From: a virus
Lineage: Duplodnaviria; Heunggongvirae; Uroviricota; Caudoviricetes
Length of the DNA: 42,705 bases
IMG/VR virus record: IMGVR_UViG_2778261632_000005
Span: 1-42,705 of that record
Direction: 5' to 3' (one strand)
The notes beneath the pieces were generated by a model, which was given only the letters and a program-made list of their open reading frames with translations, ran no database searches and had not been told where the DNA came from. Of this stretch, positions 3,240 to 39,999 are shown in pieces (position 1 is the first letter of the stretch; each line of letters begins with the position of its first letter). A program made the translations under genes and the position numbers.

Positions 3240-3757
3240 AGCGCGGCTCCTTTGCGAAGTTGGGCGGCGAATTCTGCGATGTCTGCTCTGGCCGTGTAGT
3301 GAGGTGGTAGAGAAGCGAGAAGCATCTCCACACCCTGTGCCCGCACTTCAGCCAGGATGGCGTCGGTGGCTGGGGCTTTGCCAGCTTTGCGCTCAATGGC
3401 GCATTGAAGACCTTGAATGGCATCCACAACGCGATTGCTGTCAAGATAGGTCTTACTACGATATACGTGCCTCATAACATCTGATGCGCACTCTTTCACG
3501 GTTACATTCTCCGCCGCCAGCTCCCTGCACTTGCTCTCGGCGTTAGCGAGCTGTACTGCCATGTCTGTGAGTTTCAGTTCAAGATTGTGAATAGTTGCGT
3601 CTGCTGCACGAAACTCGCGCTGGGATTCCGTTAAATTTGAGCATGCGTTCTGAATTGAGTAGGCCAAAATGGCAGTATCACGATCATCTGATTCTTCAGC
3701 TTTAACCTGCAACTGAACCGCCAGGCTGAAGAGATCAGCAATTTGAGTTTCTGTCAT
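3236..3757 (-). CDS. Hypothetical protein (about 173 aa)
   Basis: ORF open to 3859, but the ATG at 3757 lies 4 nt downstream of the ParB-like gene stop; start uncertain. Confidence 0.5.
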   Translation of the reverse strand: MTETQIADLFSLAVQLQVKAEESDDRDTAILAYSIQNACSNLTESQREFRAADATIHNLELKLTDMAVQLANAESKCRELAAENVTVKECASDVMRHVYRSKTYLDSNRVVDAIQGLQCAIERKAGKAPATDAILAEVRAQGVEMLLASLPPHYTARADIAEFAAQLRKGAAL

Positions 3758-5628: not shown

Positions 5629-5705
5629 TGGTGCAGCATGCAGGATTCGAACCTGCGACCCACGGCTTAGAAGGCCGCTGCTCTATCCATCTGAGCTAAT
5701 GCCAC
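5629..5705 (-). tRNA. tRNA-Arg (anticodon UCU), prophage-borne
   Basis: 77-nt cloverleaf read on the minus strand: D-arm GCTC/GAGC, anticodon loop CUUCUAA, T-arm GCAGG-UUCGAAU-CCUGC, 3' ACCA; the acceptor stem has two adjacent G-U pairs. Confidence 0.8.
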
Positions 5706-13323: not shown

Positions 13324-13335
13324 GTGGAGACGCTC

Positions 13336-14166
13336 ATGGATCTCGATAATGTTGTTAAATTTTTTGCCCCAAAAGGAATGCATATTTCCGATAGTGTTCG
13401 CGCTACTGCTAGTGAACAACTAACAGTAACTGATGTTATGGCAGCTCTTGGCATGACCCAGGCAGACGCTGGAATTGGCCTTGCCATGTATCTTGGTAAG
13501 GCTGGGGTAAGTAAGCAGGACAGAGAAGCATCAATAAACTGGCTTGCTGAATACGCCAAAGAATCCGCGCCTTTTGCAGTTCGCCGCCTAGCCGGTAAAA
13601 AATTCCCTCTATGTATGCTCATCTTGGCTAAGTTCGCCTATAACGACTATGCATCATCAGCTGCTGATGTATTCGATTGTCCTAAATGCAATGGCAAAGG
13701 GCTAATTGAAAAAGTTGTAACGGTAACTAAAAGCCATTACACAATGAGGCTTCCGCAATGGGCCAAAGACTTCGGGCAGTCACCATCTTATTTCGAAAAG
13801 AAGCGTGAGGTTAAGGATATTGAGCAATCACTCTGCACTAAATGTCACGGAACCGGAAAGCTAAGCAAGCGCTGCCAGTGTGGTGGGACAGGAAAGACGC
13901 TGGACCGAAAAGCAACAGATCTTCAGGGCGTACCGGTTTATAAGGAATGCAAACGCTGTGAAGGTCGCGGTTACAGCAGACCAAAATCCTCCGTTGCTTA
14001 CCGGGGTATCTTTTCCGAACTTCCAAGCCTTCCAGATCGTACTTGGCGCTATAGCTGGAAACCATTCTATGAAATGCTCGTTTCTCGTTGTTTCCAGGAA
14101 GAGAGCTATTCAAATACACAATTGAAAAAAGTTACCAGAAACGAAAGTTTGAGCGATATCGCGTAA
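13336..14166 (+). CDS. Q: Late antiterminator, Q-like
   Basis: Sits just before a promoter-terminator region and the lysis genes; Cys-rich zinc-finger-like motifs (CPKCNGKG, CTKCHGTGK, CQCGGTGK, CKRCEGRG). Confidence 0.65.
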   Translation: MDLDNVVKFFAPKGMHISDSVRATASEQLTVTDVMAALGMTQADAGIGLAMYLGKAGVSKQDREASINWLAEYAKESAPFAVRRLAGKKFPLCMLILAKFAYNDYASSAADVFDCPKCNGKGLIEKVVTVTKSHYTMRLPQWAKDFGQSPSYFEKKREVKDIEQSLCTKCHGTGKLSKRCQCGGTGKTLDRKATDLQGVPVYKECKRCEGRGYSRPKSSVAYRGIFSELPSLPDRTWRYSWKPFYEMLVSRCFQEESYSNTQLKKVTRNESLSDIA

Positions 14167-14904: not shown

Positions 14905-15172
14905 TCCGTCAGCGATGGTGAATGCAGGTATTTGTGCGGTCATCGTCCTTGTCCTGATGTTTTACCAGCGTGAAGGGGCAAGACATCGCCCCGCTATATC
15001 ATTGCTGGCGTACTTCGTTGTGCTGGTTTATGCCAGCGTTCCATTCAGATATCTGTTTGGCCTCTACCAGGAGTCACACTGGATGGTGGTCATCGTAAAC
15101 CTTCTTATTTGCGCTGCCGTCTTATGGGCTCGTGGGAACGTGGCGCGTCTCGTTGATACGCTGAGGCATTAA
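14891..15172 (+). CDS. Second small lysis-cassette membrane protein (holin/antiholin candidate)
   Basis: 93 aa with 3 predicted TM segments; GGAGGA RBS; overlaps the neighbouring genes. Confidence 0.55.
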   Translation: MVTSDPSAMVNAGICAVIVLVLMFYQREGARHRPAISLLAYFVVLVYASVPFRYLFGLYQESHWMVVIVNLLICAAVLWARGNVARLVDTLRH

Positions 15173-15789
15173 TGAACCAATCACAATTTCAACAGGCGGC
15201 TGGTGTCAGCGCCGGGTTAGCTTCGCGCTGGTTTCCGCACATTGACGCAGCAATGAAAGAGTTCGGCATTGTTAAGCCCGAAGACCAGGCAATGTTTATC
15301 GCTCAGGCAGGACATGAATCAGCAGGATTTACCGCGCTGGTGGAGAGCTTCAACTACACCCCTGCTGCTCTGCTGACCACCTTTGGACGCCGCATTACGA
15401 ACTATCAGGCATATATGCTTGGGCGTGACAAAGAAAAAGGGCAGCTAGCCAATCAGCCAGCCATTGCAAATCTGGTGTACAGCAATCGCCTCGGTAACAA
15501 AGCATCAGGCGATGGGTGGAAATATCGTGGCCGTGGGCTGATTCAGATTACCGGTCTTGATAATTACCGCCGCTGCGGAACGGGATTAAAACTGGATTTA
15601 GTCAGTAATCCTGAGTTGCTGGAAAAGGATATCAACGCTGCACGGTCAGCTGCATGGTTCTACGCCACCAGCAGATGCCTGAGCTACTCCGGCGATCTGG
15701 TTCGTATCACTCAGATCATCAATGGTGGACAGAACGGCATTAACGACCGTCGTGCACGCTACGCCAAAGCAAAATCGGTGCTCTCATGA
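15172..15789 (+). CDS. Endolysin, glycoside hydrolase family 19 (chitinase-like)
   Basis: 205 aa; GH19-type catalytic region (AQAGHESAGF, GRGLIQITG, IINGG) between the membrane proteins and the spanins. Confidence 0.8.
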   Translation: MNQSQFQQAAGVSAGLASRWFPHIDAAMKEFGIVKPEDQAMFIAQAGHESAGFTALVESFNYTPAALLTTFGRRITNYQAYMLGRDKEKGQLANQPAIANLVYSNRLGNKASGDGWKYRGRGLIQITGLDNYRRCGTGLKLDLVSNPELLEKDINAARSAAWFYATSRCLSYSGDLVRITQIINGGQNGINDRRARYAKAKSVLS

Positions 15790-16753: not shown

Positions 16754-17017
16754 TCATTACAAAGCTCATCTGCTGGTGGACTATAAACAGATAGCATTAC
16801 AGCAGGCATTCACTGAGTGCCTGTGATAATGTCAAATTGTGGTGAATGCGCAGGCTGATGCGCGTGCAACAGCTACTCATTGAAACGGTAGTTATGTCGG
16901 AGTTCAGCACCGGCCACCACACCTAATTGAATTGTCAGTGGCTAGGGTAGCTCCTGAAAAGCGGCATCGTCACCGCCTGCCACTGATAACATGACGAGCA
17001 ACTAAGACGAGGTTGTG

Positions 17018-17233
17018 ATGGGAGACAATAAAAGCCAATGGATCAGTATTGAATGCCGACTACCAGAAAGCAAAGAGGGTCAGTGGTCGAAAGAGGTAAT
17101 TGCGCTTAGTGATACCGGTGATGTCTTCAAATTATCCTGCATGGGATCATATTGGCAAAGGTCGAAGGCATTCATTGAGTCGGGTTCAACAAAGATAACG
17201 CACTGGATGCCGCTTATTTACCCCGATGATTAA
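17018..17233 (+). CDS. Small phage protein, DUF551-like
   Basis: C-terminal W-rich pattern (HWMPLIYPDD) typical of DUF551 late-region proteins; RBS ACGAGG. Confidence 0.5.
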   Translation: MGDNKSQWISIECRLPESKEGQWSKEVIALSDTGDVFKLSCMGSYWQRSKAFIESGSTKITHWMPLIYPDD

Positions 17234-17250
17234 AACAGAATGAAACGAAA

Positions 17251-17272
17251 GGTCGCTTAGGCGGCCTTTTTT
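17251..17272 (+). terminator. Intrinsic terminator
   Basis: Stem GGTCGC/GCGGCC with loop TTAG then TTTTTT. Confidence 0.6.
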
Positions 17273-17398
17273 ATTGCGCTTCGCACGCGCATATCGAAGA
17301 GAGTCTTTCAGTAGTGAGCCTGGGTGATGCCGTTAGGTTGCGTTTACCTCTCGGGCGGCATTGCCGTGCGACAGGCTCACGTCTAAAAGGAAACGCAC

Positions 17399-17734
17399 AT
17401 GAATTATCAGCTTGCAAAATTGTATCGCGGTGATCGTTTCTTCGGGTATGGAATAGCCGTAGGTGGCTTGCTTATTGATGGTCAGGTTTCAACGGTGGTA
17501 GAAACTGCGCCAAACGAAATGCCGAAAGTAATTGCGACATTTAATCTCAGCAATGAACATTCCGAAAAACAACCACGAATTGATTTAGACAACCCAAGAG
17601 CTTCTAACGAATTCCAGATTGTAATCCATCCAGATAAGACATTAACCGTTGAGCAGTTAGAAGAGTTGCGAGACACGGTTAAAGGATTTCTTACCAAGCA
17701 TAATTTGTCTGATGGTGGTTTATGGAAGTATTAA
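17399..17734 (+). CDS. Hypothetical protein (111 aa), first gene of the glycosyltransferase cassette
   Basis: 3' end overlaps the downstream glycosyltransferase start by 13 nt. Confidence 0.5.
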   Translation: MNYQLAKLYRGDRFFGYGIAVGGLLIDGQVSTVVETAPNEMPKVIATFNLSNEHSEKQPRIDLDNPRASNEFQIVIHPDKTLTVEQLEELRDTVKGFLTKHNLSDGGLWKY

Positions 17735-19179
17735 TAAACGGGGTGCGTTTTACACCAGAAGGCGATAACAAAGTACGTATTGGGATTGCAATCACAACCC
17801 ATAATCGGCATGAAGTGCTTAAGCGTGCCATTGAGCAGCACATGAAGCATCTTCCATCTGGTGCGCTGGTGGTTGTGATAGACGATGGATCAAGTCCTGC
17901 TGCAATAGTTCCTGATGGGGTTAAGTTGGTACGCCATGAGCAATCACGCGGCATTGTCGCCTCTAAGAACGCCAGCCTGACAGCGCTGGTGGACGCAGGG
18001 TGTGAGCATCTTTTCCTGTGGGATGATGATGCGTGGCCAATAGCTGATAACTGGCATCTACCCTACATCGAGTCACCAGAACCCCATTTGGCTTATCAGT
18101 TTCTTGACCTCGCTGGTCCACGAAAGATTAACGATATGACTGTCCTGTACAGGGATGATAAGCATATCGCTTACACCGGGCAGCGCGGCGTTATGCTTTA
18201 TTACCACCGCAGCGCCATTGATAAGGTTGGCGGCTTCGATCCGGTATACGGGCGTGGCATGTACGAGCATCCTGATCTGGCGCTTCGCATTCACAACGCA
18301 GGGTTATCGACCTGGGCGTTTGCGGATGTTGCGGGCTCTGAAAAGCTCATTCATTCGATGGATGAATACGAAGAGGGTGCGCGTTCAATTCCCCGACCTG
18401 AGTGTGAAGCGTTAGCAAAAGCTAATGCTGTTATTTATAGCGACAGACGCGATAACGGTTATACCGCATACGTTCCTTTCAGGAAACAGCGCAACGTGGT
18501 GATTACGGCATTGCTGACCAGCCAGAATGATCCACAACGTCAGGTAAGGATGAAAGCGTCTCCTGAGTTGGTTCAGGGATGGGCCACGTCTATTAGTGGC
18601 GCTGATGCAGTGGTACTGGCCGATGAGCTCGATACAGCACCGAAAGGTGCGGACCTTTTTAAAGTGTCACCTTTGTCAATGAGTCCCTATTTCGCACGAT
18701 GGCTGCATATTTATCAGTATCTGCGTGCTCATCCAGAGTATCTCCTTATCTGGTGTACTGATGGTACCGATGTCGAAATGCTTAGAGAGCCATGGGCAGA
18801 AATGCAGCCGGGTAAAATTTACGTGGGCTCAGAGCATAAGACGTATGCCGACGAATGGATGAAGTCCAATCACCACGGCAAAGCGTATAGCGAGTTCATC
18901 GAGAAGCACATTGATGAACCGCTGCTCAACGCTGGACTACTTGGTGGTAGTCGTGACGATGTAATGGAGTTTGCTCACAGGATCATCAGACAGTATTACC
19001 TGATTGAAAGCCATCATTTCTGGAGGATGGAGACAGCTCTCCCCGCGCTGGTCGATATGGGTGCTTTCGGTATGGCTGCGAAGTCATTTGGCAATAGAGT
19101 CGTTACCGGCCCTAAGGTTCATACCATTTTTAAAACTGATGGTATCGGTAAGGAGTTCGCATGGTTTCGCCACAAGTAA
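17722..19179 (+). CDS. Two-domain glycosyltransferase (N-terminal GT2-like GT-A domain, second DxD-containing domain)
   Basis: 485 aa; N-terminal GT2 pattern (IGIAITTHNRHEVLKRAIEQ, VVIDDGSS, LWDDDAWP); C-terminal half has a further acidic motif (LIWCTDGTDVE). Confidence 0.7.
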   Translation: MEVLINGVRFTPEGDNKVRIGIAITTHNRHEVLKRAIEQHMKHLPSGALVVVIDDGSSPAAIVPDGVKLVRHEQSRGIVASKNASLTALVDAGCEHLFLWDDDAWPIADNWHLPYIESPEPHLAYQFLDLAGPRKINDMTVLYRDDKHIAYTGQRGVMLYYHRSAIDKVGGFDPVYGRGMYEHPDLALRIHNAGLSTWAFADVAGSEKLIHSMDEYEEGARSIPRPECEALAKANAVIYSDRRDNGYTAYVPFRKQRNVVITALLTSQNDPQRQVRMKASPELVQGWATSISGADAVVLADELDTAPKGADLFKVSPLSMSPYFARWLHIYQYLRAHPEYLLIWCTDGTDVEMLREPWAEMQPGKIYVGSEHKTYADEWMKSNHHGKAYSEFIEKHIDEPLLNAGLLGGSRDDVMEFAHRIIRQYYLIESHHFWRMETALPALVDMGAFGMAAKSFGNRVVTGPKVHTIFKTDGIGKEFAWFRHK

Positions 19180-19754
19180 TGTTTGTGGTTATTGGTCATC
19201 ATGTTCGCCGTAAACAGGCATTGATTTTGGCTGAATCTATTGGTGCAACCCTGATGATTGATACTGATGATCACGGTGCTAACTGGAATCATCGCCGCGC
19301 GCTGGAATGGGCAGCCAATCAATCATGCCGTGTGGTAGTGCTTGAAGATGATGCTATGCCAGTTGCTGGTTTCTGCGAAAAGATTGCTGTATGGCTTGCA
19401 CGTTATCAGGATGCACTGTGTTCATTTTATCTCGGCACTGGCCGTCCACCACAGTATCAACTGGAGATAGCATCAAAGCTAATAGCAGCTGATAAGGCCA
19501 GAGCTGACTTCATTACATTGCCGCGTCTTATTCATGGCGTCTGCTACAGCGTACCTCAGCAACATATCAAGAGAGTGCTGGATAAATGGAACCACAGCAA
19601 AGCAGCAGACTATGCAGTCGGTGATGCTTACGGTGGCCCTGTTGTCTATCCATGCTACTCACTTGTTGACCACGCTGATGGACAGCCAGTAGAACCAGCC
19701 AGAGACAATCAGCCAAGAACAGAACGCCGCAGAGCATGGAGGTTACATGTCTAA
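19179..19754 (+). CDS. Putative GT-A-fold glycosyltransferase (191 aa)
   Basis: DxD-like motif VVLEDDAMP; ATG overlaps the upstream stop (TAATG); the ORF is open from 19161. Confidence 0.5.
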   Translation: MFVVIGHHVRRKQALILAESIGATLMIDTDDHGANWNHRRALEWAANQSCRVVVLEDDAMPVAGFCEKIAVWLARYQDALCSFYLGTGRPPQYQLEIASKLIAADKARADFITLPRLIHGVCYSVPQQHIKRVLDKWNHSKAADYAVGDAYGGPVVYPCYSLVDHADGQPVEPARDNQPRTERRRAWRLHV

Positions 19755-20115
19755 GTTAAAGACACTACAACCGCGCCTGAAAGCTATCGACACCCGACGA
19801 ATAAAGCCTGTCTATGGTGAGCATCGTCGAGTGAGTGGAAGCGCAAGGGTAAGCCTTAAGCGTCGTATCTATGTGCGCGACGGTGGTCACTGCTGTATGT
19901 GCAATCAAGTAGTAGACCTGCATGACAGCGAGCTTGATCACCGCATAGCACTACAGTTCGGTGGTGACAACGATGAGAGCAACCTCTGGACGCTGTGCAT
20001 TGATTGCCACTCAGGTAAGTCATCGCGCGAAGCATCAATGAACCAACCTGACAGTGAGGCTCTGAAGCACTCTGTGCCGAAAGATAAATCACAATCTGGC
20101 ATCGTAATTCTCTGA
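19747..20115 (+). CDS. HNH endonuclease (packaging-associated)
   Basis: HNH motif (CCMCN...DHRIALQFGGDNDESNLWTLCIDCH) directly upstream of the terminase genes. Confidence 0.8.
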   Translation: MSKLKTLQPRLKAIDTRRIKPVYGEHRRVSGSARVSLKRRIYVRDGGHCCMCNQVVDLHDSELDHRIALQFGGDNDESNLWTLCIDCHSGKSSREASMNQPDSEALKHSVPKDKSQSGIVIL

Positions 20116-20215
20116 CCAAACACCGGGGGGGTATCGGTGGGTGTCAACGCCGATCGCGCTGGACACCGCGCCCCCTCTCACACACAGAAAATTTTCCCCT
20201 TTGGAGGGTGTTAAC

Positions 20216-20677
20216 GTGTTAACAGGACAAAAGCGCAAATTCGCACAAGCGCTGATGTCCGGTTCATCCCAGGCTGAAGCAGCCCGAAAGGCCGGTTACT
20301 CCGAGAAAACCGCGAGGTCACAGGGTTCCCGGCTGGCAAAAGACCCGGATATCATCGCGTTTATCAGTAAAAAACGTGGGGTCGAAGTCATTGCCGAGCA
20401 GGCTGTTTCTGAACCAGATGATCTGCCAAAAGTTGTTAACAGAACGGTGAAGGAATTTGATGATCCGCTTGAGTTCCTGAAAGCAGTGATGAACGACGTA
20501 TCAGAAGAGACGGACGTCAGAAAAGACGCCGCAAAAGCGATGCTGCCATACCTTCACCCCAAAAAAGGAGAAGGCGGTAAAAAGGATGCAAGACATGCCG
20601 CCGCGAAGGTCGCAGCAACGGGTAGCAAGTTTGGAGCAATGGCACCGCCGAAGCTTGTTGTTAATAACAAGGGGTAA
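20216..20677 (+). CDS. Terminase small subunit
   Basis: GTG start with GGAGGG RBS; HTH-like N-terminus (QKRKFAQALMSGSSQAEAARKAGYSEKTA); ORF open from 20141. Confidence 0.75.
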   Translation: MLTGQKRKFAQALMSGSSQAEAARKAGYSEKTARSQGSRLAKDPDIIAFISKKRGVEVIAEQAVSEPDDLPKVVNRTVKEFDDPLEFLKAVMNDVSEETDVRKDAAKAMLPYLHPKKGEGGKKDARHAAAKVAATGSKFGAMAPPKLVVNNKG

Positions 20678-20680
20678 TCA

Positions 20681-22339
20681 ATGGCTCAATGGACCACGGC
20701 TTGCCCTGAATGGGAATCTCTTCTGGTTGCAAAGCAATCAATCATCCCACCACCAATTTTCCCAGACCAGGCAGAACAGGCACTTGGCATCTTCAAAGAG
20801 TTACGCGTCTCTGATTTACCAGGGAAGCCAACATTTGGTGAGTGTTCCGAGGAATGGGTATTTGACTTTGTTAATGCCATTTTTGGTGGCTATGAAGCAG
20901 AGACTGGTAAGCAGTTAATCCGCGAATATGGACTACTTATCTCGAAAAAGAACACAAAATCGACCATCGCTGCAGGAATTATGCTGACCGCGCTAATCCT
21001 GTGCTGGCGTGAAGATGAAGAGCACCTGATTCTCGCGCCGACAAAAGAGGTGGCTGATAACAGTTTTAAACCTGCTGCCGGGATGATACGCGCCGATGAA
21101 GAGCTGTCTGATATGTTCCAGATTCAGGACCATATCCGCACCATCACACACCGAGTAACACGAAATACACTCAAAGTAGTAGCAGCTGACACCGATACTG
21201 TTTCAGGTAAAAAGTCAGGGCGCATTCTGGTCGATGAGCTTTGGTTGTTTGGCAAGCGAGCTAATGCCGAAGCCATGTTTATGGAAGCACTTGGTGGGCA
21301 GGTATCTCGCAACGAAGGGTGGGTTATATTCCTGACTACGCAAAGTGATGAACCGCCTGCTGGTGTATTCAAAGAACGCCTTGATTACTGGCGAGCTGTG
21401 CGAGATGGGAAGATTAATGACCTTAAAACACTCGGCGTCCTGTATGAATTCCCTGACTCTATGGTGGAAAGCAAGGCTTACCTTGAACCAAAAAATTTCT
21501 ACATCACCAATCCGAATATTGGACGTTCGGTAAGTGAAGAATGGATTGCCGATCAGCTTCTGAAGAACCAGAACAAAACAGACGGCACATTACAGCAGTT
21601 CCTTGCGAAACACCTCAATATCGAAATTGGTCTGAACCTCCGCAGTGACCGATGGGCAGGTGTTGATTTCTGGGAGCCGCAAATTAGGCAGGTAACATTC
21701 AGCGATATCCTTCAGCGAGCTGAGGTTGCTACGGTTGGGATAGATGGTGGTGGCCTTGATGACCTTCTTGGTCTTTACATTATTGGTCGTGACAAAGAAA
21801 CCCGTGAGTGGATTGGATGGGGCCATGCCTGGGCGCATGAAATAGCTGTGCGCCGCAGAAAAAGCGAGGAATCCAGGTTCAACGATTTCGTTAAGGCCGG
21901 TGACCTGACTATCGTAAAACGAGTAGGACAGGACACGGAGGAAGTCGCTGAATATGTTAGCCGTATTAATGATGCGGAACTGCTGGATAAAATTGGCATT
22001 GACCCTTCTGGTGTCGGTCAGATCCTTGATGCTCTTGTAGAAGCTGAAATACCTGAAGATTCAGTGGTTGGTGTCAGCCAGGGATGGAGACTTGGTGGTA
22101 CGATTAAGACCACAGAGCGCAAGCTTGCAGAGGGTGTGCTTATTCATGGCGGACAACCATTAATGGCCTGGTGTGTAGGAAACGCCAGAGTAGAGCCAAA
22201 AGGTAACGCTATCCTCATCACCAAACAGGCCAGCGGTAAGGGTAAAATTGACCCCCTTATGGCCCTGTTTAATGCCGTTTCGCTAATGGCACTTAATCCT
22301 GAAGCGAAGAAGAAAGATTACCAGGTATTTTTTATATAA
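20681..22339 (+). CDS. Terminase large subunit
   Basis: 552 aa directly after TerS; N-terminal ATPase region and acidic nuclease-like C-terminal region (GIDGGGLDDLLG). Confidence 0.8.
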   Translation: MAQWTTACPEWESLLVAKQSIIPPPIFPDQAEQALGIFKELRVSDLPGKPTFGECSEEWVFDFVNAIFGGYEAETGKQLIREYGLLISKKNTKSTIAAGIMLTALILCWREDEEHLILAPTKEVADNSFKPAAGMIRADEELSDMFQIQDHIRTITHRVTRNTLKVVAADTDTVSGKKSGRILVDELWLFGKRANAEAMFMEALGGQVSRNEGWVIFLTTQSDEPPAGVFKERLDYWRAVRDGKINDLKTLGVLYEFPDSMVESKAYLEPKNFYITNPNIGRSVSEEWIADQLLKNQNKTDGTLQQFLAKHLNIEIGLNLRSDRWAGVDFWEPQIRQVTFSDILQRAEVATVGIDGGGLDDLLGLYIIGRDKETREWIGWGHAWAHEIAVRRRKSEESRFNDFVKAGDLTIVKRVGQDTEEVAEYVSRINDAELLDKIGIDPSGVGQILDALVEAEIPEDSVVGVSQGWRLGGTIKTTERKLAEGVLIHGGQPLMAWCVGNARVEPKGNAILITKQASGKGKIDPLMALFNAVSLMALNPEAKKKDYQVFFI

Positions 22340-22397: not shown

Positions 22398-24335
22398 ATG
22401 AAGCTTGACCGCGCATGTACGATCATGACGGTGAAAGCGGTGGATGAGGACAAACGGATAATCACCGGGATTGCTTCCACACCATCACCTGACCGTGACG
22501 GCGACATTATGGACCCTGACGGTGCGAAGTTCGGTAGTGAAAACCCTTTCCTCTGGCAGCATGACAGAACCCAACCTATTGGGAACTGTTCTGCAAAGAA
22601 AGTGAAAGAAGGGCTTCAGATCACGGCGCAACTTGTTAAGCCAACACCTGACATGCCATCGCAGCTGGTGGCCAGGCTTGAAGAAGCGTGGGCATCAATC
22701 AAATCAGGTCTTGTGAAAGGCCTGTCTATCGGCTTCAAGCCAATTAAATACGCATATCTCGACTCTGGTGGCATCCATTTTCTTGAATGGGAGCTTCTTG
22801 AAGTTTCTGCAGTAACGATCCCGGCGAATGCCGAGTGTTCGATTCAAACCGTTAAATCGTTTGACCGCCAGTTACTCGCCGCGCTCGGCACTGAGAAACC
22901 GGTAGTTAAAACCATAAATTCTGCTGGCGCTTCAGCACCGAATAAATCTTCTCAAAAAGGAAAATCAACGATGAATATCGCTGAACAGATCAAAAGTTTT
23001 GAAAACAAGCGTGCAGCGCTGGCTTCTTCACTGAACGACATCATGAGCAAAGCCGCCGATGAAGGCCGCACGCTGGATGCGGAAGAAACAGAAAGCTACG
23101 ACAACACCTCTACTGAAATCAAAGCGGTCGACGAGCACCTTAAACGCCTGCGTGATATGGAAACCAGCATGGCATCAACCGCCAAGCCAGTAACTAAAGC
23201 AGCATCTGGTGAAGTTACAGTGGTGAATAACGCACCATCCATCATCCGTGTAGAGCCTAAGCTGGAAAAAGGTATTGCCTTTGCCCGTTTTGCCAAGTCT
23301 CTTGCAGCTGGTAACGGTAGCCGCTCCGAAGCGCTACAGATTGCGAAAAACCAGTATCCTGATGACACCAAACTTCATCACGTTCTGAAAGCTGCGGTAA
23401 GTGCTGGTACTACCACAGACCCTGCCTGGGCTGGTGCACTGGTTGAATATCAGGATTACGCGCAGGATTTCGTTGAGTTTCTGCGTCCTCAGACCATTAT
23501 CGGACGTTTTGGCCAGGGTAACATCCCGTCCCTGCGTCAGGTTCCGTTCAATGTTCGAATTCCGGCGCAGACCTCCGGTGGTTCTGCTAACTGGGTTGGT
23601 CAGGGTAAAGCCAAGCCTCTGACCAAGTTTGACTTCGCAACCATCACCTTCGGTTTCTCCAAGGTGGCTTCTATTGCAGTACTGACCGAAGAGTTGATCC
23701 GTTTCTCAAATCCATCTGCTGATGCTCTGGTGCGTAACGCCCTGGCTGAAGCGGTGATCGCGCGGCTGGATACCGACTTCATCGACCCGGCAAAAGCGGC
23801 AGTGGCTGATGTTTCCCCTGCATCTATTACCAACGGTATTACTGCGATTCCGTCTACTGGCGATCCAGATACCGATGCTGCAGCAGCATTTGGTAAATTT
23901 ATTACCAATAACCTGCAGCCGAATGGCGCGGTATGGCTGATGTCCAGTACTACGGCTCTCACTCTCTCCATGCGTAAAAATGCCCTGGGCCAGAAAGAGT
24001 ATCCTGACATGACCATGCTGGGCGGTACATTCCAGGGTCTGCCAGTAATTGTCTCCCAGTACGTTGGCAATCAGTTGGTGCTGGTTAATGCACCGGATGT
24101 ATACCTGGCTGATGACGGCGGTGTGGCAGTTGATATGTCTCGCGAAGCTTCTCTGGAAATGCAGAGCGCTCCGACCCATGACAGCACCACCCCAACGGCA
24201 GTGGAACTGGTATCCATGTTCCAGACCAACAGCGTGGCCATCCGTGCAGAGCGCTGGATTAACTGGAAACGCCGTCGCGATACAGCAGTGGCCGTTATCT
24301 CCGGCGTTGATTACAGCACTGGCGCTACCAGCTAA
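22398..24335 (+). CDS. Fused prohead protease (HK97 family) and major capsid protein (HK97 fold)
   Basis: 645 aa; N-terminal 170 aa resembles HK97-type prohead protease, the rest from MNIAEQIKSF resembles HK97-family major capsid protein. Confidence 0.75.
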   Translation: MKLDRACTIMTVKAVDEDKRIITGIASTPSPDRDGDIMDPDGAKFGSENPFLWQHDRTQPIGNCSAKKVKEGLQITAQLVKPTPDMPSQLVARLEEAWASIKSGLVKGLSIGFKPIKYAYLDSGGIHFLEWELLEVSAVTIPANAECSIQTVKSFDRQLLAALGTEKPVVKTINSAGASAPNKSSQKGKSTMNIAEQIKSFENKRAALASSLNDIMSKAADEGRTLDAEETESYDNTSTEIKAVDEHLKRLRDMETSMASTAKPVTKAASGEVTVVNNAPSIIRVEPKLEKGIAFARFAKSLAAGNGSRSEALQIAKNQYPDDTKLHHVLKAAVSAGTTTDPAWAGALVEYQDYAQDFVEFLRPQTIIGRFGQGNIPSLRQVPFNVRIPAQTSGGSANWVGQGKAKPLTKFDFATITFGFSKVASIAVLTEELIRFSNPSADALVRNALAEAVIARLDTDFIDPAKAAVADVSPASITNGITAIPSTGDPDTDAAAAFGKFITNNLQPNGAVWLMSSTTALTLSMRKNALGQKEYPDMTMLGGTFQGLPVIVSQYVGNQLVLVNAPDVYLADDGGVAVDMSREASLEMQSAPTHDSTTPTAVELVSMFQTNSVAIRAERWINWKRRRDTAVAVISGVDYSTGATS

Positions 24336-24367: not shown

Positions 24368-24538
24368 ATGGCAAAGATCAGATACCTACAGCGTACACAT
24401 GACTCATTGCCAGGTGATGAGAAAATTGTGAATGACCAGTGCGCAAAGGTACTGGTTCTGCTGCATAAAGCTGAATATGTGACTGGCAAAAAAGCTGGTG
24501 GACCGAAAAAGAAAAAAGTTAACGCGGAGAATGGCTGA
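24368..24538 (+). CDS. Small basic hypothetical protein (56 aa), absent from the supplied ORF track
   Basis: Found by manual translation (MAKIRYLQRTHDSLPGDEKIVNDQCAKVLVLLHKAEYVTGKKAGGPKKKKVNAENG); stop overlaps the portal ATG; no clear RBS. Confidence 0.4.
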   Translation: MAKIRYLQRTHDSLPGDEKIVNDQCAKVLVLLHKAEYVTGKKAGGPKKKKVNAENG

Positions 24539-25890
24539 TGTGGAATCCTTTTAGTCGGAAAGAGAAAGCACTACAGCAACCATCATCTCGCGGCTGGACT
24601 CCGATATTTTCCTTTGTCAGAGAACCTTTCGCAGGTGCCTGGCAAAGAAACATGGAAATCAGGAATGAGACCGTACTTTCGTATTATGCGGTGTTCTCTT
24701 GCATTACGCTGATAGCCAGTGACATTTCAAAGATGTCGCCAGCCATTCAGGCCAAAGATTCTAACGGCATCTGGAAAGAAGTTTCGGATAATGAATTCGA
24801 CACACTAATCAGTAAACCTAACCAGTTTCAGAACACAATTCAGTTTTTTGAAACGTGGATGAATTCAAAACTTTCTCGCGGAAATACCTACGTGATGAAG
24901 GTTAAAAACAATACCGGGAAGATTACAGAACTTCGTATTCTTGATCCGGATAAAGTCACACCCTTAGTTGCTGATGATGGTTCTGTTTTTTATCAAATTA
25001 GCCCTGACCAGATTAGCGGTTTGCCGACACAAGTAACCGTTCCGGCGCGAGAAATAATTCACGATCGCTTTAACTGCCTATTTCATCCTTTGATCGGTAT
25101 TTCTCCTATCTATGCATGTGGACTCGCAGCAATGCAGGGTAAGCACATCCAGGAAAGCTCTGCGTTCTTCTTTAAAAATGGCGGCAAACCAAGTGGCGTT
25201 ATTACTATTCCTGGCTCTGTTGATGCTGACAAAGCCACAGAAATAAAAAAAGCATGGGATGCAGGTTACACAGGGGAAAATGCAGGAAAGACTGGACTGT
25301 TATCAGGTGGCGCAGAATACAAAGCGATCACCATGTCTGCGGTAGATGCGCAGACTGTTGAGCAGCAGAAACTCTCTGCAGAAATGGTTTGTTCTGCCTT
25401 CCATGTCCCGGCATATAAGGCTGGCGTTGGCGAAATACCAAGTTCTGATAACGTTGAAGCACTTGAACAACAATATTACTCACAGTGCCTGCAGGTGCTG
25501 ATTGAGTCTATCGAGTCACTCTTGAAAGAAGCTTTCGAACTGGATGCCAAAAAGCGTGTTGAGCTTGATATCGGCGCGCTGTTACGAATGGACAGCGAAC
25601 GCAGAATGAAAGCGCTGGGTGATGGAGTTAAAAACACCATCCTTACTCCAAACGAAGCCCGTAAAAGTGAAAACCTTCCTCCTGTTGAAGGTGGTGATTC
25701 TCTCTTCCTGCAGCAGCAGAACTTCAGCCTGGCAGCGCTGGCCAGGCGCGATGCATCAGAAGACCCATTCGCGAAAGGGACGCAACAGCCGCAGACAGCG
25801 ATTGCACCTGTTGATGAAAGTGGAAAGACGCTAAGTGAGACTGAACTTTTCGCGGCGAAAACAATGCTCAGAGGATTATTAACAAAATGA
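24538..25890 (+). CDS. Portal protein, HK97 family
   Basis: 450 aa; composition and C-terminal pattern (LTPNEARKSENLPPVEGGD) consistent with HK97-type portals. Confidence 0.7.
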   Translation: MWNPFSRKEKALQQPSSRGWTPIFSFVREPFAGAWQRNMEIRNETVLSYYAVFSCITLIASDISKMSPAIQAKDSNGIWKEVSDNEFDTLISKPNQFQNTIQFFETWMNSKLSRGNTYVMKVKNNTGKITELRILDPDKVTPLVADDGSVFYQISPDQISGLPTQVTVPAREIIHDRFNCLFHPLIGISPIYACGLAAMQGKHIQESSAFFFKNGGKPSGVITIPGSVDADKATEIKKAWDAGYTGENAGKTGLLSGGAEYKAITMSAVDAQTVEQQKLSAEMVCSAFHVPAYKAGVGEIPSSDNVEALEQQYYSQCLQVLIESIESLLKEAFELDAKKRVELDIGALLRMDSERRMKALGDGVKNTILTPNEARKSENLPPVEGGDSLFLQQQNFSLAALARRDASEDPFAKGTQQPQTAIAPVDESGKTLSETELFAAKTMLRGLLTK

Positions 25891-26771
25891 ATGAACGTGA
25901 ATTATCCCTGATTAAAGCGCTTGGTGAAGAGTTTGGAGCAGCCATTAAAAAAATGGCAGATGACTTTCAGCAAGCGCTGGAGAAAACAGCCAGTAATCTG
26001 GAGAAGCAACTGGAAGAGGTTCGTCAATCAATTCCAGAATTCCAACCAGTAGAAATACCAGATGTATCTAAAATGGTTGCCGATGCTGTAAGTGAAATTG
26101 AATTACCGAAGGCTCCAGAACTACCAGACTTGAACCAGATTATCGCCGATGCTGCCAAAAGCGCGGTGAAGCAGGTTTTTGAATCAATTCCAGTACCCAA
26201 GGATGGTAAAAGCGTCACGGTTGATGATCTGCGTCCCCTTGTCGAAGAGGTAGTTAATGCGTTAATTCCTGAGCCGGTAGATGTTGAAAAGCTCGCTCAG
26301 GATTTGTTGTCAAAGATTCCTGATCCTGAACCTGGTTCAGATGGTCGTGACGCTCTTGCAATAGAGCTTGAACCATTCATTGACGAGAAAAAAAGCTATC
26401 CACGCGGTACCTATGCGACTCACAAAGGCGGCCTTTGGCGCGCCCATGAAAAGACGCACGGCATGCGGGGCTGGGAATGTATTGTTGACGGTGTGTCTGG
26501 CATTGATATCAAACAAGATAACCAGCGAACCTTCTCAATTTCTCTCGAAAGAGCAAGCGGAACTGTTGAAGTTAAGTCCTTTGACATCCCGGTAACTATC
26601 TATCGCGATGTATTCAAATCTGGTACCGAATATCAACCTGGCGATACGGTCACATGGGGTGGTTGTATGTGGCATTGCAACGAGAAAACCTGCGACAAGC
26701 CTGGTGAGACAGGATCAAAAGGATGGACGCTTGCTGTTAAGAAAGGGCGAGATCTGAGGGATAAACCATGA
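25887..26771 (+). CDS. Hypothetical head-region protein (294 aa)
   Basis: Coiled-coil N-terminus, Pro/Glu-rich linker, Cys/His-containing C-terminal domain (WGGCMWHCNEKTCDKPGE); ATGA overlap with the portal stop. Confidence 0.5.
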   Translation: MNERELSLIKALGEEFGAAIKKMADDFQQALEKTASNLEKQLEEVRQSIPEFQPVEIPDVSKMVADAVSEIELPKAPELPDLNQIIADAAKSAVKQVFESIPVPKDGKSVTVDDLRPLVEEVVNALIPEPVDVEKLAQDLLSKIPDPEPGSDGRDALAIELEPFIDEKKSYPRGTYATHKGGLWRAHEKTHGMRGWECIVDGVSGIDIKQDNQRTFSISLERASGTVEVKSFDIPVTIYRDVFKSGTEYQPGDTVTWGGCMWHCNEKTCDKPGETGSKGWTLAVKKGRDLRDKP

Positions 26772-27094
26772 TTGAACTGGTTACGCTCGAAGAAGCTAAA
26801 TTGCATCTCCGTATTGATGACGACTATGGAGATACTGATCTTACCTTGAAAATTAAGGGCGGCAGTGCGGCGATCCTTTCTTACATCCAGGGGAGTCGCG
26901 CGCTAATCGTGGGTGATTCTGGAAATCTTATCGATGGTGAGCCGCTTACTCGCGTTCAGACAGCCCTGTTGGTTCTGCTTGGCTATCTGGACCGTAACCG
27001 CGGCGGCGAAGAAGAAGAAAAGTTGAAACAGGGAGAGCTTCCTTTTTCTGTATCAATGCTGATTTACGACCTCCGTAAGCCGACAATTATTTAA
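26768..27094 (+). CDS. Head-tail connector protein (gp6-like)
   Basis: 108 aa, N-terminal LEEAKLHLRID pattern typical of gp6-like connectors. Confidence 0.6.
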   Translation: MIELVTLEEAKLHLRIDDDYGDTDLTLKIKGGSAAILSYIQGSRALIVGDSGNLIDGEPLTRVQTALLVLLGYLDRNRGGEEEEKLKQGELPFSVSMLIYDLRKPTII

Positions 27095-28586: not shown

Positions 28587-29084
28587 ATGTCAGTAGTGAC
28601 TCAAGGCACTCAGATGTACGTTCTGAATAACGGTGTGGTCAGTGAAGTTGAATGTATTACTTCGTTCTCACCAGGTAGTAGCCCGGCAGATCAGATTGAA
28701 GATACCTGTCTGAGTGAAACCAGTACTCGTTCCTATAAAAAAGGTCTGCGCACACCTGGTCAGGCTACGGTAGCTCTTAACGCAGACCCGGCAAACGCCA
28801 GTCATGTCATGCTGAGCAATCTTGCCGAATCAAGCGATCAAACAAACCTGACCTTCGCTATTGGCTGGGCTGATGGAACGGATGAACCAACGGTAGCGAC
28901 TTCAGGTGATCCAGATGCAGTAGATGGTCTTTCTCTACCGGATACGCGTACCTGGTATGTATTCCAGGGCTATGTTTCTGATTTCCCGTTCGACTTCCAG
29001 GCTAATACGGTCGTACAAACCTCAGCAACTATTCAGCGTTCAGGGCAGGGGGTTTGGGTTCCAAAGGCCCAACCAACGAGCTAA
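28587..29084 (+). CDS. Major tail tube protein
   Basis: 165 aa, GGAG RBS, immediately upstream of the G/GT chaperone pair. Confidence 0.7.
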
Positions 29085-36417: not shown

Positions 36418-38514
36418 ATGACCACTTATAACACCGGCAATCCGCTGGGGTCTGCTGCTGCAAAAGATTTATACGATAACGCTCAGAACTTTGATCATCT
36501 GTCGAATGATCTTGAAAATGAGATGTGGCCTGACCGATTTGGGAAGAGCAGGTTAACTTGGCATGGAATGGAAAAAAGATACCAGGAAAAGCTGGTGTCT
36601 ATGGGGTGGGAACTGATTGATTCATTTCAGGGAGGAACTACGTTAACGAGGGCAGATCAGGCGTTGCGTTGGGAATTACCTGATGGGGATGGAGAGTATT
36701 ACCGCTGGGATGGCTCTCTGCCTAAAACAGTCCCTGCCGGTTCTACACCAGATTCAACAGGTGGTGTTGGCACTGGCGCATGGGTTGGAGTTGGTGATGC
36801 ATCTCTTAGATCTGATCTAACAAAATATGGTGCAACGGTTGACCAGATAGCGCATCGGGTTACAACACTGAAATCTTTTGAAGAGTTTGGTGCGATTGGA
36901 GATGGGGTTACTAATGATACAGCCTCGATGCTGGCAGCGCTGGAATGGCTGAAAGATGTCCCTTTCGGTAAATTGGTTGGCAGACCTGGCGCAAATTATC
37001 TAATCACACAAAGCCTCGTCATGAAATTTGACGGCTCATACACTCAAGATGTAACGTCAACTCGCTATCTGGATTTTACTGGGACAGTGATTGTGGCAGG
37101 CGCCGATAATATCACTTGCATTCGCATGAGCCATGATTTCTGCCATATCATCAATCCTGTAGTAATTAACCCAAATAACTATTCCGACGTTATCGCCTAC
37201 GCTATTGCACCAGAAACCGAATCTCAGACTACCATACGCGTGTCACAGCAATTCTGTGTAATGGAGAATCCACGAGCACGGGGAACTAAGATAGGCCTTA
37301 AGTTTAAACCAGGGCCTACAGTCGGTGGGAGTAATAGCGGTGCGTATTACCACTCAATTATGAATCCTAATTTTGAGAGAGTGGATTGCGGATTCTATTT
37401 CGAGCGCAGCGTAAGCGGAGACAATAACAACACAAGGATTCATATCTTCAATCCAGTTCATATAACCGGTAACTGTGCTTTTTGGATCGAAAGCACTGAC
37501 TCACTACGCGTTTACGGTGGATCATGTGAAAATATCACATTGGGAACCTGGCCGGCTGACGTGCCATGCGCAGTCCGTGTTGTAAAAACAGTAAGCACAG
37601 ATACACAGGTCGCTGGAAACCTACATTTCTACGGATATCTTGGAGAAGTTTGTCACAGAGCCTATCAAATAGATACAAATGTAGGAACCTACGAAAACTA
37701 CTTTGATTGGAAATGGGTATTAATTAATGAAAACCCATATCGCGCACCAGGACAGGATGGGAATTTCGTAGCACGATTTGATGGGGAAATTCTTAGTAGT
37801 AGCTGGGACAACAGTGCTCTTAACGTAGTAGGGTGTAGAAACCCACATACAGGACATCAGGCAATAATCATCCAAAATCCAGATGAGACGCCAGCAGAAC
37901 TTTGGAGTAATACTGGGTGGAAATTTACCGCAACAATTTACGATTGCCCGGCACAAAATTTACAACATAGTAATAGCCATGAACAGATATTAGGGGCATT
38001 GTATGCTGGATTGACGCTTACAACCTATCCTGATAGCAGGAGAATAATGTTAACAAGCAAGGAGGGGGCTGATGGGGTTGAGAGACCACAAAATGATCTG
38101 ATAATTAATGGATTTAACAGGCTATGTGCAGAAAATGATAATGATACCGCTCTTGGTGATTCTGATAGACGGTGGAGTGTTGTTTATGCAGCTACTAGTT
38201 CAATAGTTACATCTGATGAGGAGCATAAAACCTCTTTTCTATCAGATGATAATACTTTAGAAAGAGAGAAGAAGGCAGCTAAGGAAATTAAAAGCTGTAT
38301 ATTTCGGTATAAGTTTAAAAAAAGCATTGATAAAAAAGGAGAGGGGGCCCGTCTTCATTATGGAGTGGGGGCGCAAACTGTTGGCGAAATTATGAGGAAG
38401 TATGACCTGAATCCGGATAATTATGCTTTTTGGTGCAGAAACAAAACAAATGAAGGCGATAGGTATGGTATCAGATACGAAGAGTTAATTATGTTTCTGA
38501 TGGTTAACGCATAA
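36418..38514 (+). CDS. Tailspike / side tail fibre with C-terminal intramolecular chaperone-like domain
   Basis: 698 aa; central region looks like a beta-helix depolymerase domain; C-terminal 110 aa resembles peptidase-S74 autoproteolytic chaperone domains (TSSIVTSDEEHKT ... GARLHYGVGAQTVGEIM ... YGIRYEELIMF). Confidence 0.6.
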   Translation: MTTYNTGNPLGSAAAKDLYDNAQNFDHLSNDLENEMWPDRFGKSRLTWHGMEKRYQEKLVSMGWELIDSFQGGTTLTRADQALRWELPDGDGEYYRWDGSLPKTVPAGSTPDSTGGVGTGAWVGVGDASLRSDLTKYGATVDQIAHRVTTLKSFEEFGAIGDGVTNDTASMLAALEWLKDVPFGKLVGRPGANYLITQSLVMKFDGSYTQDVTSTRYLDFTGTVIVAGADNITCIRMSHDFCHIINPVVINPNNYSDVIAYAIAPETESQTTIRVSQQFCVMENPRARGTKIGLKFKPGPTVGGSNSGAYYHSIMNPNFERVDCGFYFERSVSGDNNNTRIHIFNPVHITGNCAFWIESTDSLRVYGGSCENITLGTWPADVPCAVRVVKTVSTDTQVAGNLHFYGYLGEVCHRAYQIDTNVGTYENYFDWKWVLINENPYRAPGQDGNFVARFDGEILSSSWDNSALNVVGCRNPHTGHQAIIIQNPDETPAELWSNTGWKFTATIYDCPAQNLQHSNSHEQILGALYAGLTLTTYPDSRRIMLTSKEGADGVERPQNDLIINGFNRLCAENDNDTALGDSDRRWSVVYAATSSIVTSDEEHKTSFLSDDNTLEREKKAAKEIKSCIFRYKFKKSIDKKGEGARLHYGVGAQTVGEIMRKYDLNPDNYAFWCRNKTNEGDRYGIRYEELIMFLMVNA

Positions 38515-38558: not shown

Positions 38559-39995
38559 TTAGAATCTAATAACTACAATATTATCAACGAGATATATTGC
38601 AAATACATTACCTGCATATAAGGTGGTTTTGTCATTTGCTTTTAGTAAAATTTCATCACGTTTATCATTATTTGCATAGGTAATATCATTTAGCCCGTTC
38701 CTCATTAAAATAAATCTTCCACCATCATAACCCCAAGAAAATGTGTCAAGCATCATGTTATTCATGAATGGATAAATGTTAATGGTTGACTCCATGACTC
38801 CAGAATGTTGTGGGCGCCCATCAATAATAAATTCTTTATGCTTTGATAAATTCAACCTGTCAAGATTACTCACTATCCTGGTTGCTAAAGATTCTGCATA
38901 TCTAAAATCTTCTCGCACTGCATTTGTAGATGCACATAAAAAAAGATAATTAGTAAAGTAAAAAAATACCGCTGGCGCAAGCCATAGCCATTTACGTTTA
39001 AAAGAACAGCACAACGCATAAAGACAGAAGAAGGATGCAGCAGAAATCCCTATAATTGTTCGTGGTATGATTGATGGATTTTGCCCATACACTCCAACTC
39101 CTGGTATAAACGTGACAAGTGCACATAAAACAATAACTATCGTCAGAAAGGTAAATAATGGTTTTGTTGATCTAAAGCACATAACGCATACAGCAACAAC
39201 AAACGCAGCGCACATGATTGCAATCGGGTATAAAAATGGTGAGTCTAGTAGTTTTAAAATGAGTATGTATGAGTTTTTGTAATTATTAAGAACTGTTTCA
39301 AGTCCCGAATAAGTCAATGGAACGATTTTATTGAAATTCAAAAAGTAATAACTTACATTAGTTATTGGGATAATAACTTTAAGGTATGCTATAGTGCCTA
39401 AAAGAAATGTTAAAGCTCTAATTATCAATACTTTGGTTATGTTTTTATAATTTTCTTTTTTTACATAAGCTCCCATGAATATCTCAATAGCGGATAGACA
39501 TATAAATAGTGCTATTGCAGCTTGGTAAAGAGAAAGGCTGGCAACAAGAGCCGTTACTGACAAAACAAAAGAAGATATTTTGTTAGTGTGTAAAATATAA
39601 GGCGTAATTGCCATGGTTACAGATAGAACCATAAAGAAGGAATCATATCTGAATAATAAATTAGAAACAAAAAAAGGAGATGCTAAGAAGCATAAAGATA
39701 GCACTATTGCTTTAATCCCTTTGCTCCCTATAAAGTATTCACATACTTTTAAAGATACTGCACTATAAAGGATTAATGCCAGAATTGTCATTCCTGGGAA
39801 GTAGTCAGGAAGAACATCTCCTGTAGTAATTGTTCTATATATAGCTTCTGCAAGAGGTCGTCCATCTCCTTGCCATCCATAATATGACCATACCGACCTA
39901 AATATGTCGTCATTATAATAACTAGTTCCTAACAGTAATGGAATGGCATAAAATAATGTCAGTCCAGCAGCAATAACTATATGTCTATTAGGCAT
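38559..39995 (-). CDS. Serotype-specific O-antigen glucosyltransferase, GtrC-like polytopic membrane protein
   Basis: 478 aa, about 10 predicted TM helices, strongly AT-rich coding sequence, immediately downstream of gtrA-gtrB. Confidence 0.75.
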   Translation of the reverse strand: MPNRHIVIAAGLTLFYAIPLLLGTSYYNDDIFRSVWSYYGWQGDGRPLAEAIYRTITTGDVLPDYFPGMTILALILYSAVSLKVCEYFIGSKGIKAIVLSLCFLASPFFVSNLLFRYDSFFMVLSVTMAITPYILHTNKISSFVLSVTALVASLSLYQAAIALFICLSAIEIFMGAYVKKENYKNITKVLIIRALTFLLGTIAYLKVIIPITNVSYYFLNFNKIVPLTYSGLETVLNNYKNSYILILKLLDSPFLYPIAIMCAAFVVAVCVMCFRSTKPLFTFLTIVIVLCALVTFIPGVGVYGQNPSIIPRTIIGISAASFFCLYALCCSFKRKWLWLAPAVFFYFTNYLFLCASTNAVREDFRYAESLATRIVSNLDRLNLSKHKEFIIDGRPQHSGVMESTINIYPFMNNMMLDTFSWGYDGGRFILMRNGLNDITYANNDKRDEILLKANDKTTLYAGNVFAIYLVDNIVVIRF

Positions 39996-39999
39996 GATA

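Follow-up and report, generated by a model that had tools for sequence, protein, structure and literature searches.

A late two-gene glycosyltransferase cassette of a lambdoid enterobacterial phage is predicted to glycosylate the capsid and tail-tube proteins

In a 42,705-nt stretch of tailed-phage DNA (Caudoviricetes; IMG/VR record IMGVR_UViG_2778261632_000005, positions 1 to 42,705; hereafter the window), we analysed a cassette of two glycosyltransferase (GT) genes, GT485 and GT197, and the small open reading frame (ORF) that precedes them. A preliminary description, made from the sequence alone, had reported a 111-aa ORF followed by proteins of 485 and 191 aa between the lysis genes and the HNH-TerS-TerL genes. 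All three ORFs are present where it had placed them, and the overlap of the 111-aa ORF with GT485, which it had also noted, was seen and measures 13 nt. The second transferase likewise exists as an ORF, but not at the proposed length: the 191-aa form begins at 19179, with an ATG that shares bases with the upstream stop codon, and homologues back a 197-aa start at the first ATG. The cassette and the gene directly after it are arranged as follows:

17399-17734, + strand: 111-aa accessory ORF, overlapping the start of GT485 by the 13 nt mentioned
17722-19179, + strand: GT485, a 485-aa two-domain glycosyltransferase
17722-18483, + strand: N-terminal GT-A domain of GT485, of GT2/Glyco_transf_7C type, with invariant D101 and D103 in a WDDDAW motif
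18484-19179, + strand: C-terminal domain of GT485 (residues ~255-485), GT-A-like by topology
19161-19754, + strand: GT197, a 197-aa GT-A glycosyltransferase of the Che8 gp110 family, whose start overlaps the end of GT485
19747-20115, + strand: HNH endonuclease of HK97 gp74 type, a terminase accessory (Pfam HNH, phrog_589)

Profile and fold searches upheld the glycosyltransferase identity of both proteins. GT485 matched phrog_1579 ('glycosyltransferase') from end to end (7.6e-226), and its residues 22-109 gave a weak Pfam GT2 match. Among 36 diverse GT485 homologues, Pfam found GT2 in 26 and Glyco_transf_7C in 24, always in the N-terminal half, and clustering at 50% identity gave at least 240 clusters that keep the two-domain architecture. 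An NCBIfam search returned GT2-type matches only, all far below threshold. The C-terminal domain matched nothing in Pfam, in NCBIfam or among the sequences of the PDB, and profile comparison with the GT197 family revealed no similarity. In the AlphaFold model, this domain has a per-residue confidence (pLDDT) above 90 throughout, and its strands alternate with helices in a Rossmann-like beta/alpha topology. The invariant residues D347 and D350 stand straight after the strand formed by residues 340-346, and the protein has an invariant C-terminal His-Lys. Fold comparison also yielded two-domain alignments of GT485 with multi-GT proteins of giant viruses, although the fold matches of GT485 are whole-protein hits without alignment ranges for each domain. 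From the model, the C-terminal half is a probable, unproven second GT-A domain. Of the three glycosyltransferase domains originally proposed for the cassette, the N-terminal domain of GT485 and GT197 are thus supported as glycosyltransferases, while the third is GT-A-like by topology only.

GT197 matched phrog_854 (8.2e-68) and no Pfam domain. Its relatives are mostly labelled 'hypothetical protein' in public records, the nearest being in Citrobacter freundii and C. portucalensis genomes. Invariant residues of the family are E62-D63-D64, H125 and H171-x-D173. The AlphaFold model is a compact GT-A fold with a pLDDT of 90.4 (93.4 for GT485), and both models match GT-A folds, with a DxD-type acidic motif after the fourth strand (E62-D63-D64 in GT197; D101 and D103 in the N-terminal domain of GT485). 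Sequence searches of solved structures gave no match for either protein. By fold, the top solved-structure matches of GT197 were GT-A enzymes that glycosylate polypeptides (POMGnT1, ppGalNAc-T2, COLGALT1/LH3 and mimivirus R699), and the minimal viral GT-A protein STIV A197 was also matched. No membrane segment was found in either GT485 or GT197 (maximum 19-residue Kyte-Doolittle mean ≤ 1.23). Enzymes of giant-virus capsid glycosylation were among the fold matches (PBCV-1 A064R; mimivirus R699 and multi-domain GTs). Like the proteins of the cassette, these are cytoplasmic GT-A enzymes, often with several GT domains, and they glycosylate the structural proteins of their own virus. In contrast, the likeness is at fold level only (identity below ~20%), the viruses are eukaryotic, and the acceptor chemistry and sites are different.

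By sequence, both enzymes lead to mycobacteriophages. GT197 was 36% identical to Che8 gp110 over 191 residues (BLASTP, E = 8e-28), and GT485 was 45% identical, over its full length, to glycosyltransferases encoded by hundreds of Cluster F mycobacteriophages (e.g. Nitzel and Rita). Mycobacteriophages attach glycans to the proteins of their capsid and tail tube with their own glycosyltransferases, and according to a passage of PMC12363180 that cites Freeman et al. 2023, the two glycosyltransferases that capsid glycosylation requires are Che8 gp110 and Corndog gp38. Modification of capsids and tail tubes by such enzymes is likewise described in a passage of PMC10877033, and O-glycosylation of the capsid, the tail or both in one of PMC11652166; these two papers cite Freeman et al. 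2023 as well. Passages of PMC12363180 and PMC11652166 state that the glycan shields the particle from antibody, and for Rita, capsid glycans have been reported. The gene order is also shared: a GT485-type GT, a gp110-type GT, HNH and terminase follow one another in the window, in the enterobacterial phage HK542 and, at the right genome end, in Cluster F phages, just before the cos site. In Che8, gp110 is followed by gp111 and then by the HNH gene gp112. The Cluster O phage Dylan has its three glycosyltransferase genes in the interval from the portal to the prohead protease gene; one of the products, gp35, is a GT197 homologue and probably the equivalent of Corndog gp38.

The window shares with the experimentally characterised Che8/Corndog/Myrna system of Freeman et al. 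2023 (Cell Host Microbe, PMID 37329881) a gp110-family GT-A enzyme with at least one further glycosyltransferase beside it, a position of these genes directly 5′ of HNH and terminase or within the head gene block, and a Gly/Thr/Asp-Ser C-terminus on the capsid and tail-tube proteins (see below). The two systems differ in several respects. The window phage is lambdoid, temperate and Q-regulated, and its host is a Gram-negative enterobacterium, probably Citrobacter. Its second enzyme is the fused two-domain GT485, whereas Che8 has gp108, a GT of another type, and gp109. Finally, its capsid protein is a fusion of the protease and the major capsid protein (MCP), and glycosylation is here a prediction.

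Phage glycosyltransferases may also act on DNA. Glycosylation of the phage DNA against restriction, as performed by the T4 alpha/beta-glucosyltransferases or by TET-associated glycosyltransferases, would fit the two DNA methyltransferases encoded in the window, the Pfam TAGT (PF20691) matches of 8 of the 36 GT485 homologues, and a preprint in which phage GT-A enzymes glycosylate 5-hydroxymethylcytosine. However, these TAGT matches scored 19-21 bits against a cutoff of 27.5 bits and covered only the generic nucleotide-binding/DxD part of the N-terminal domain; GT485 of the window itself had no TAGT match in Pfam. The PHROGs and Pfam scans of early and late ORFs, which took in part of the small early ones, turned up no TET/5mYOX, no dCMP/dUMP hydroxymethylase and nothing else that could supply a hydroxylated base. 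According to the same preprint, a base-modification enzyme is missing from the neighbourhood in ~65% of such GT contigs, for which action on DNA is less likely, and the characterised relative of GT197 acts on virion proteins. With sub-threshold, generic TAGT matches and no gene for a hydroxylated base, DNA glycosylation was set aside as highly improbable.

The preliminary description had held that lambdoid phages usually lack such enzymes at this site. This did not hold up, because the same pair occupies the same site in HK542, mEp390, ECP1, ENT39118, ENT47670 and FSL SP-016, and the cassette was present in 53 of the 55 HK97-type head loci whose upstream sequence reached far enough for a judgement (from 80 IMG/VR loci retrieved by their HK97-type capsid protein). 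By tblastn, full-length relatives of GT485 were found in HK542, ECP1, Fraca, FSL SP-016, mEp390, ENT39118, ENT47670, the Aeromonas phage AsXd-1 and Klebsiella jumbo phages, as well as in 568 Mycobacterium phage records at ~45% identity. GT197 had the same phage distribution and was found in 662 Mycobacterium phage records. In a second set of 80 IMG/VR loci, found via GT197, the two genes were nearly always paired and followed by HNH-TerS-TerL-MCP. The position was exactly that of the window in HK542, mEp390, ECP1 and ENT39118, i.e. 3′ of the spanin genes and 5′ of the HK97 gp74-type HNH gene. Proteins of these HK97-like enterobacterial phages (HK542 gp54/gp55, mEp390 gp54/gp56, ECP1 gp22/gp23, and those of ENT39118, ENT47670 and FSL SP-016) are 64-74% identical to those of the window and likewise encoded between the spanin genes and HNH. 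Most of these phages have an HK97-type head, in contrast to the protease-MCP fusion head of the window, and their cassette genes bear automatic names only ('glycosyltransferase', 'glucosyltransferase' or 'hypothetical protein'). An incomplete literature search found no functional study of the cassette in HK542, mEp390, ECP1 or their kin.

Two further arrangements of the pair were observed. Free-standing HNH genes lie between the two GT genes in mEp390 (L086 38222-38734) and directly upstream of the pair in ECP1 (L088 1283-1843), which suggests homing-endonuclease activity around the cassette. In the Klebsiella jumbo phage FBKp24 (L171 8001-10070), the GT485-GT197 pair, with 42-57% identity, stands by itself as a two-gene island, on the strand opposite to its neighbours; the jumbo phages that bear this island are myovirus genomes of ~300 kb.

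In mycobacteriophages such as Che8, Freeman et al. 2023 reportedly place the glycans at the C-terminal ends of the subunits that build the capsid and the tail tube. The corresponding proteins of the window both end in Thr-Ser:

22398-24335, + strand: prohead protease-major capsid protein fusion (phrog_617, Peptidase_S78, Phage_capsid), ending ...DYSTGATS, Thr-Ser codons at 24327-24332
28587-29084, + strand: major tail (tube) protein, a lambda-like tail-tube protein without immunoglobulin (Ig)-like domain (Pfam Phage_TTP_11, 1.9e-66), ending ...PKAQPTS, Thr-Ser codons at 29076-29081

Of the 202 ORFs with 50 aa or more that the six frames of the window contain, these two alone end in Gly-Ser or Thr-Ser ([G/T]-Ser). 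The same ending was present on all complete capsid homologues (62/62) and all tail-tube homologues (35/35) of the 80 loci found via GT197. Since the background is ~1.6% of long ORF segments ending in [GT]S, both proteins would be tagged by chance at ~2e-4 per independent lineage. The C-termini of phages and loci with and without the cassette were as follows:

Che8, cassette present: capsid ...NKTGS, tail tube ...YSDGS
Window, cassette present: capsid ...STGATS, tail tube ...KAQPTS
HK542 and mEp390, cassette present: capsid SSGS, tail tube ASGS
L033, cassette present: capsid ESGS, tail tube EQTS
L050 and L082, cassette present: capsid GSGS, tail tube ASGS
Dylan, cassette present: capsid LVGS, tail tube KGDS
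Sparky, cassette present: capsid GGGS, tail tube GGGS
Shiga toxin (Stx) phage clade (capsid 73% identical), cassette absent: capsid SGG in 79 of 80, tail tube AGG or AAG
L187, cassette absent: capsid SAD, tail tube TIS

BLAST detects no relation among the capsid families of the window, the HK97 type, Che8 and Dylan, nor among three tail-tube families. At least five lineages whose capsid or tail families are unrelated bear the signature, and they bear it on exactly these two proteins. The other head and connector proteins of Sparky and Dylan mostly lack this ending. The two glycosyltransferases were found in none of the 62 assessable loci of the Stx-phage clade. We also observed that Stx1/Stx2 converting phages (L084, L090-L169) have small Gly/Ala ends on the capsid and on the Ig-domain tail tube where their cassette-bearing kin have Ser; the two termini of this clade seem to have changed in parallel.

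The tail-tube proteins also indicated where such a tag would lie on the particle. In cassette-bearing HK97-type phages, the short tail-tube proteins (147-158 aa) correspond in alignments to the N-terminal tube domain of their HK97 and Stx counterparts, with up to 73% identity, and end where the latter run on into an Ig-like domain. The Ig-like domain of lambda gpV decorates the outside of the tail tube. The Ser tag should therefore be surface-exposed, since it is located where this external domain attaches. Across the loci compared, tail tubes of cassette-bearing phages were mostly short (147-165 aa) with a Ser tag, whereas cassette-free kin carried the C-terminal Ig-like domain (window 28587-29084 versus L087 6733-7437 and L084 14553-15269). 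Speculatively, glycan and Ig-like domain may be two alternative ways of decorating the surface.

We propose that the cassette is probably a virion-glycosylation module of the Che8/Corndog/Myrna type, acting in the cytoplasm and late in the cycle to O-glycosylate the C-termini of the capsid and tail-tube proteins. Virion proteins are favoured over DNA or host glycans because of the homology to Che8 gp110, the linkage to the head-tail genes and the [G/T]-Ser ending of the capsid and tail-tube proteins. The target, earlier thought undecidable from the sequence, can thus be narrowed by the same three points. In the predicted sequence of events, the cassette would be transcribed late, in the Q-antiterminated operon, together with the lysis, packaging, head and tail genes. 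The soluble GT197, of the Che8 gp110 family, would then add the first sugar, from a host nucleotide sugar, to the ...[G/T]-Ser tails at the C-termini of the major capsid and tail-tube proteins in the cytoplasm. GT485, with its GT2-type and second GT-A-like domains, would lengthen this first sugar by further residues, so that head and tail surfaces would come to bear many copies of a short O-linked glycan. The terminal Ser/Thr as acceptor, the order of the enzymes and the identity of the sugar are parts of this scheme that we infer. Candidate benefits to the phage would be shielding from antibody or protease, or altered adhesion.

Several observations weigh against this proposal. The case rests wholly on comparison, and generic GT-A fold matches are no proof of a protein acceptor. 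Between GT485 and Che8 gp108 or gp109, no similarity could be detected, and GT485 was dropped as a counterpart of either; because it is unrelated to both, the conserved core would consist of the gp110-type enzyme plus variable extending enzymes. The signature and the cassette are also not always found together. HK97 and L176 are cassette-free, yet their near-identical capsid protein still ends in SSGS, which recent module exchange could explain, and in three loci with the cassette, the tail tube has an Ig domain and ends in TVN. EEGS is the C-terminus of the HK97-type head-tail adaptor Ad1 (HK97 gp6 type) in almost every locus (L085-L089, L172-L251), with or without the cassette and including HK97 itself (L087 5219-5545). 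This ending may mark a third substrate or be a coincidence; the window's own Ad1 (26768-27094) is without it. Furthermore, the locus counts given above reflect co-inheritance of the cassette with the head module, so that the independent evidence consists of a few unrelated capsid and tail families and two or three loss events.

Some of these observations would also fit an explanation in which other proteins, such as tail fibres, the tailspike, the portal or host proteins, were glycosylated, and the Ser signature were incidental or served another purpose. The SSGS capsid ending retained by cassette-free HK97 and the EEGS adaptor ending that is indifferent to the cassette both agree with this explanation. 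However, the capsid and tail tube are the reported substrates in the homologous mycobacteriophage systems, as stated in the passages referred to above, and chance would hardly return the signature to these two proteins in at least five lineages at the rate calculated per lineage. We therefore consider modification of other proteins rather unlikely.

The surroundings of the cassette bear on a further explanation, in which a host envelope glycan is modified. The relevant genes are:

13324-14166: Q-type antiterminator
15172-15789: endolysin, upstream of the cassette, as are the spanins
17015-17233: DUF551 gene, upstream of the terminator described below; a 95-aa ORF is also upstream
20141-20677: TerS
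20681-22339: TerL
38559-41342, - strand: gtrA/gtrB/gtrC cassette, separate from the late cassette

Downstream of the cassette, the gene order is HNH, TerS, TerL, the protease-capsid fusion, portal, connector proteins and a lambda-like tail-tube gene. Promoter-like sites between Q and the terminase genes were no commoner than chance, and because no excess of such sites was seen there, we place the cassette inside the Q-dependent late operon. The separate, canonical gtrABC that the preliminary description had mentioned was indeed found on the minus strand. Like the gtrABC genes of SfV, P22 and relatives, of which this prophage has one copy, the late cassette encodes phage sugar transferases. In contrast, gtrABC products are membrane proteins that use a bactoprenol-linked sugar to modify the O-antigen in the periplasm, and their genes are expressed in the lysogen and lie beside the attachment site, whereas the late cassette is soluble, late-expressed and head-linked, with no membrane features of the GtrA, GtrB or GtrC type.

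Modification of a host envelope glycan (lipopolysaccharide core, O-antigen, enterobacterial common antigen or capsule) in the lytic cycle could block superinfection or keep progeny phage from re-adsorbing to debris. Against this, both enzymes are soluble and lack a membrane segment, and their genes are in a late lytic operon rather than in a lysogenic-conversion locus, in a phage that already has gtrABC on the other strand. The cassette also accompanies the head-tail module in phages of Gram-negative as well as mycobacterial hosts; since the envelopes of these hosts are unrelated, this argues for a phage-encoded acceptor. The C-terminal Ser signature, moreover, would be left unexplained. Overall, a host glycan is an unlikely target, and we retain virion glycosylation as the proposed function.

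Upstream of the cassette, the preliminary description had noted a structured leader. Such an element is real and conserved, but not specific to the cassette. It follows the terminator of the preceding gene:

17247-17276, + strand: Rho-independent terminator hairpin that closes the DUF551 gene, a 10-bp stem followed by UUUUUU
17277-17398, + strand: conserved structured leader of ~120 nt (fold z = -2.5)

The long stem of the leader has 9 bp, formed by GTGAGCCTG (17314-17322) and CAGGCTCAC (17372-17380), and there is a small GCGC hairpin besides. In addition, UCUUU at 17304-17308 pairs with AAAGG at 17386-17390, overlapping the Shine-Dalgarno sequence of the first downstream gene. Across at least 70 distinct related loci, including mEp390, the leader keeps an identity of 72-98%, while the encoded proteins there are only ~65% identical. 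In the consensus fold, most positions are invariant and one pair covaries; the structure is therefore suggested rather than proven. Rfam gave no match to the leader at gathering or relaxed thresholds. The gene that follows it varies between the 111-aa ORF, GT485 directly and other small ORFs. A GT-specific role was rejected, because the leader also lies 5′ of a non-GT gene in L176 and of an antirepressor-type gene in an Stx phage, and is absent in HK97. Copies were located, for example, at 36602-36718 of mEp390 (L086) and at 3400-3525 of Stx2a_1447 (L084). We conclude that the leader is generic for genes inserted in the late region, where it possibly masks the ribosome-binding site, and that it stands outside the glycosylation machinery. 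Possibly it is a cis-regulatory RNA, not described before, that belongs to the late operons of lambdoid phages.

The 111-aa ORF matched phrog_10235, a family of unknown function (9e-25), and had no Pfam or NCBIfam match. Homologues, conserved at the protein level with 41-96% identity, occurred in ~15 of the 80 loci found via GT197, and the ORF is an optional passenger of the cassette.

Other features of the window were recorded alongside. An Rfam int-alpA RNA motif (16935-16999, + strand; 43.2 bits versus a gathering score of 35.8) lies in the late region directly 5′ of the DUF551 gene and not beside an integrase or alpA. Short intergenic segments at 16794-16831 and 16755-16782, including the hairpin caggcattcactgagtgcctg, have copies of 93-100% identity in many related loci, occasionally two per locus, and look like shared boundary elements of late-region gene cassettes. 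The portal gene appears to be split: the ORFs at 24538-25890 and 25887-26771 match residues 2-451 and 704-857 of a single PHROG portal profile of 859 residues, a weak CBM_5_12 match was seen in the second ORF besides, and the record of an Stx phage likewise names two 'portal protein' genes. In the early leftward prophage region there is a tRNA gene (5632-5705, - strand; Rfam tRNA, 65.6 bits).

From these comparisons, we propose to extend a known type of virion-glycosylation system to enterobacterial phages and to define a minimal C-terminal acceptor tag for it. Freeman et al. 2023 reportedly state in their abstract that there is little evidence of virion glycosylation outside actinobacteriophages, and in our own, incomplete search of the literature we found no report of it in enterobacterial phages. 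It is about an even chance that, as a rule, temperate enterobacterial phages of the HK97 family and its relatives have heads and tails glycosylated by a portable two-gene cytoplasmic module that reads ...Gly/Thr-Ser-COOH, with the glycan as a functional substitute for the tail-tube Ig-like domain of cassette-free kin. The prediction is directly testable, as cassette-bearing isolates exist (HK542, mEp390 and ECP1). If it is true, virion glycosylation would be no peculiarity of actinobacteriophages but common in temperate phages of Enterobacteriaceae, including close kin of HK97, the structural paradigm for tailed-phage capsids. A tag-directed cytoplasmic O-glycosylation system, with a very short tag and a soluble enzyme of 197 residues, would then be ready for E. 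coli-type hosts. The proposal also bears on the reading of unexplained cryo-electron microscopy density at capsomer and tail surfaces, on the design of particles for phage therapy, given the antibody shielding by the mycobacteriophage glycan, and on how gut phages encounter antibodies, mucus and proteases.

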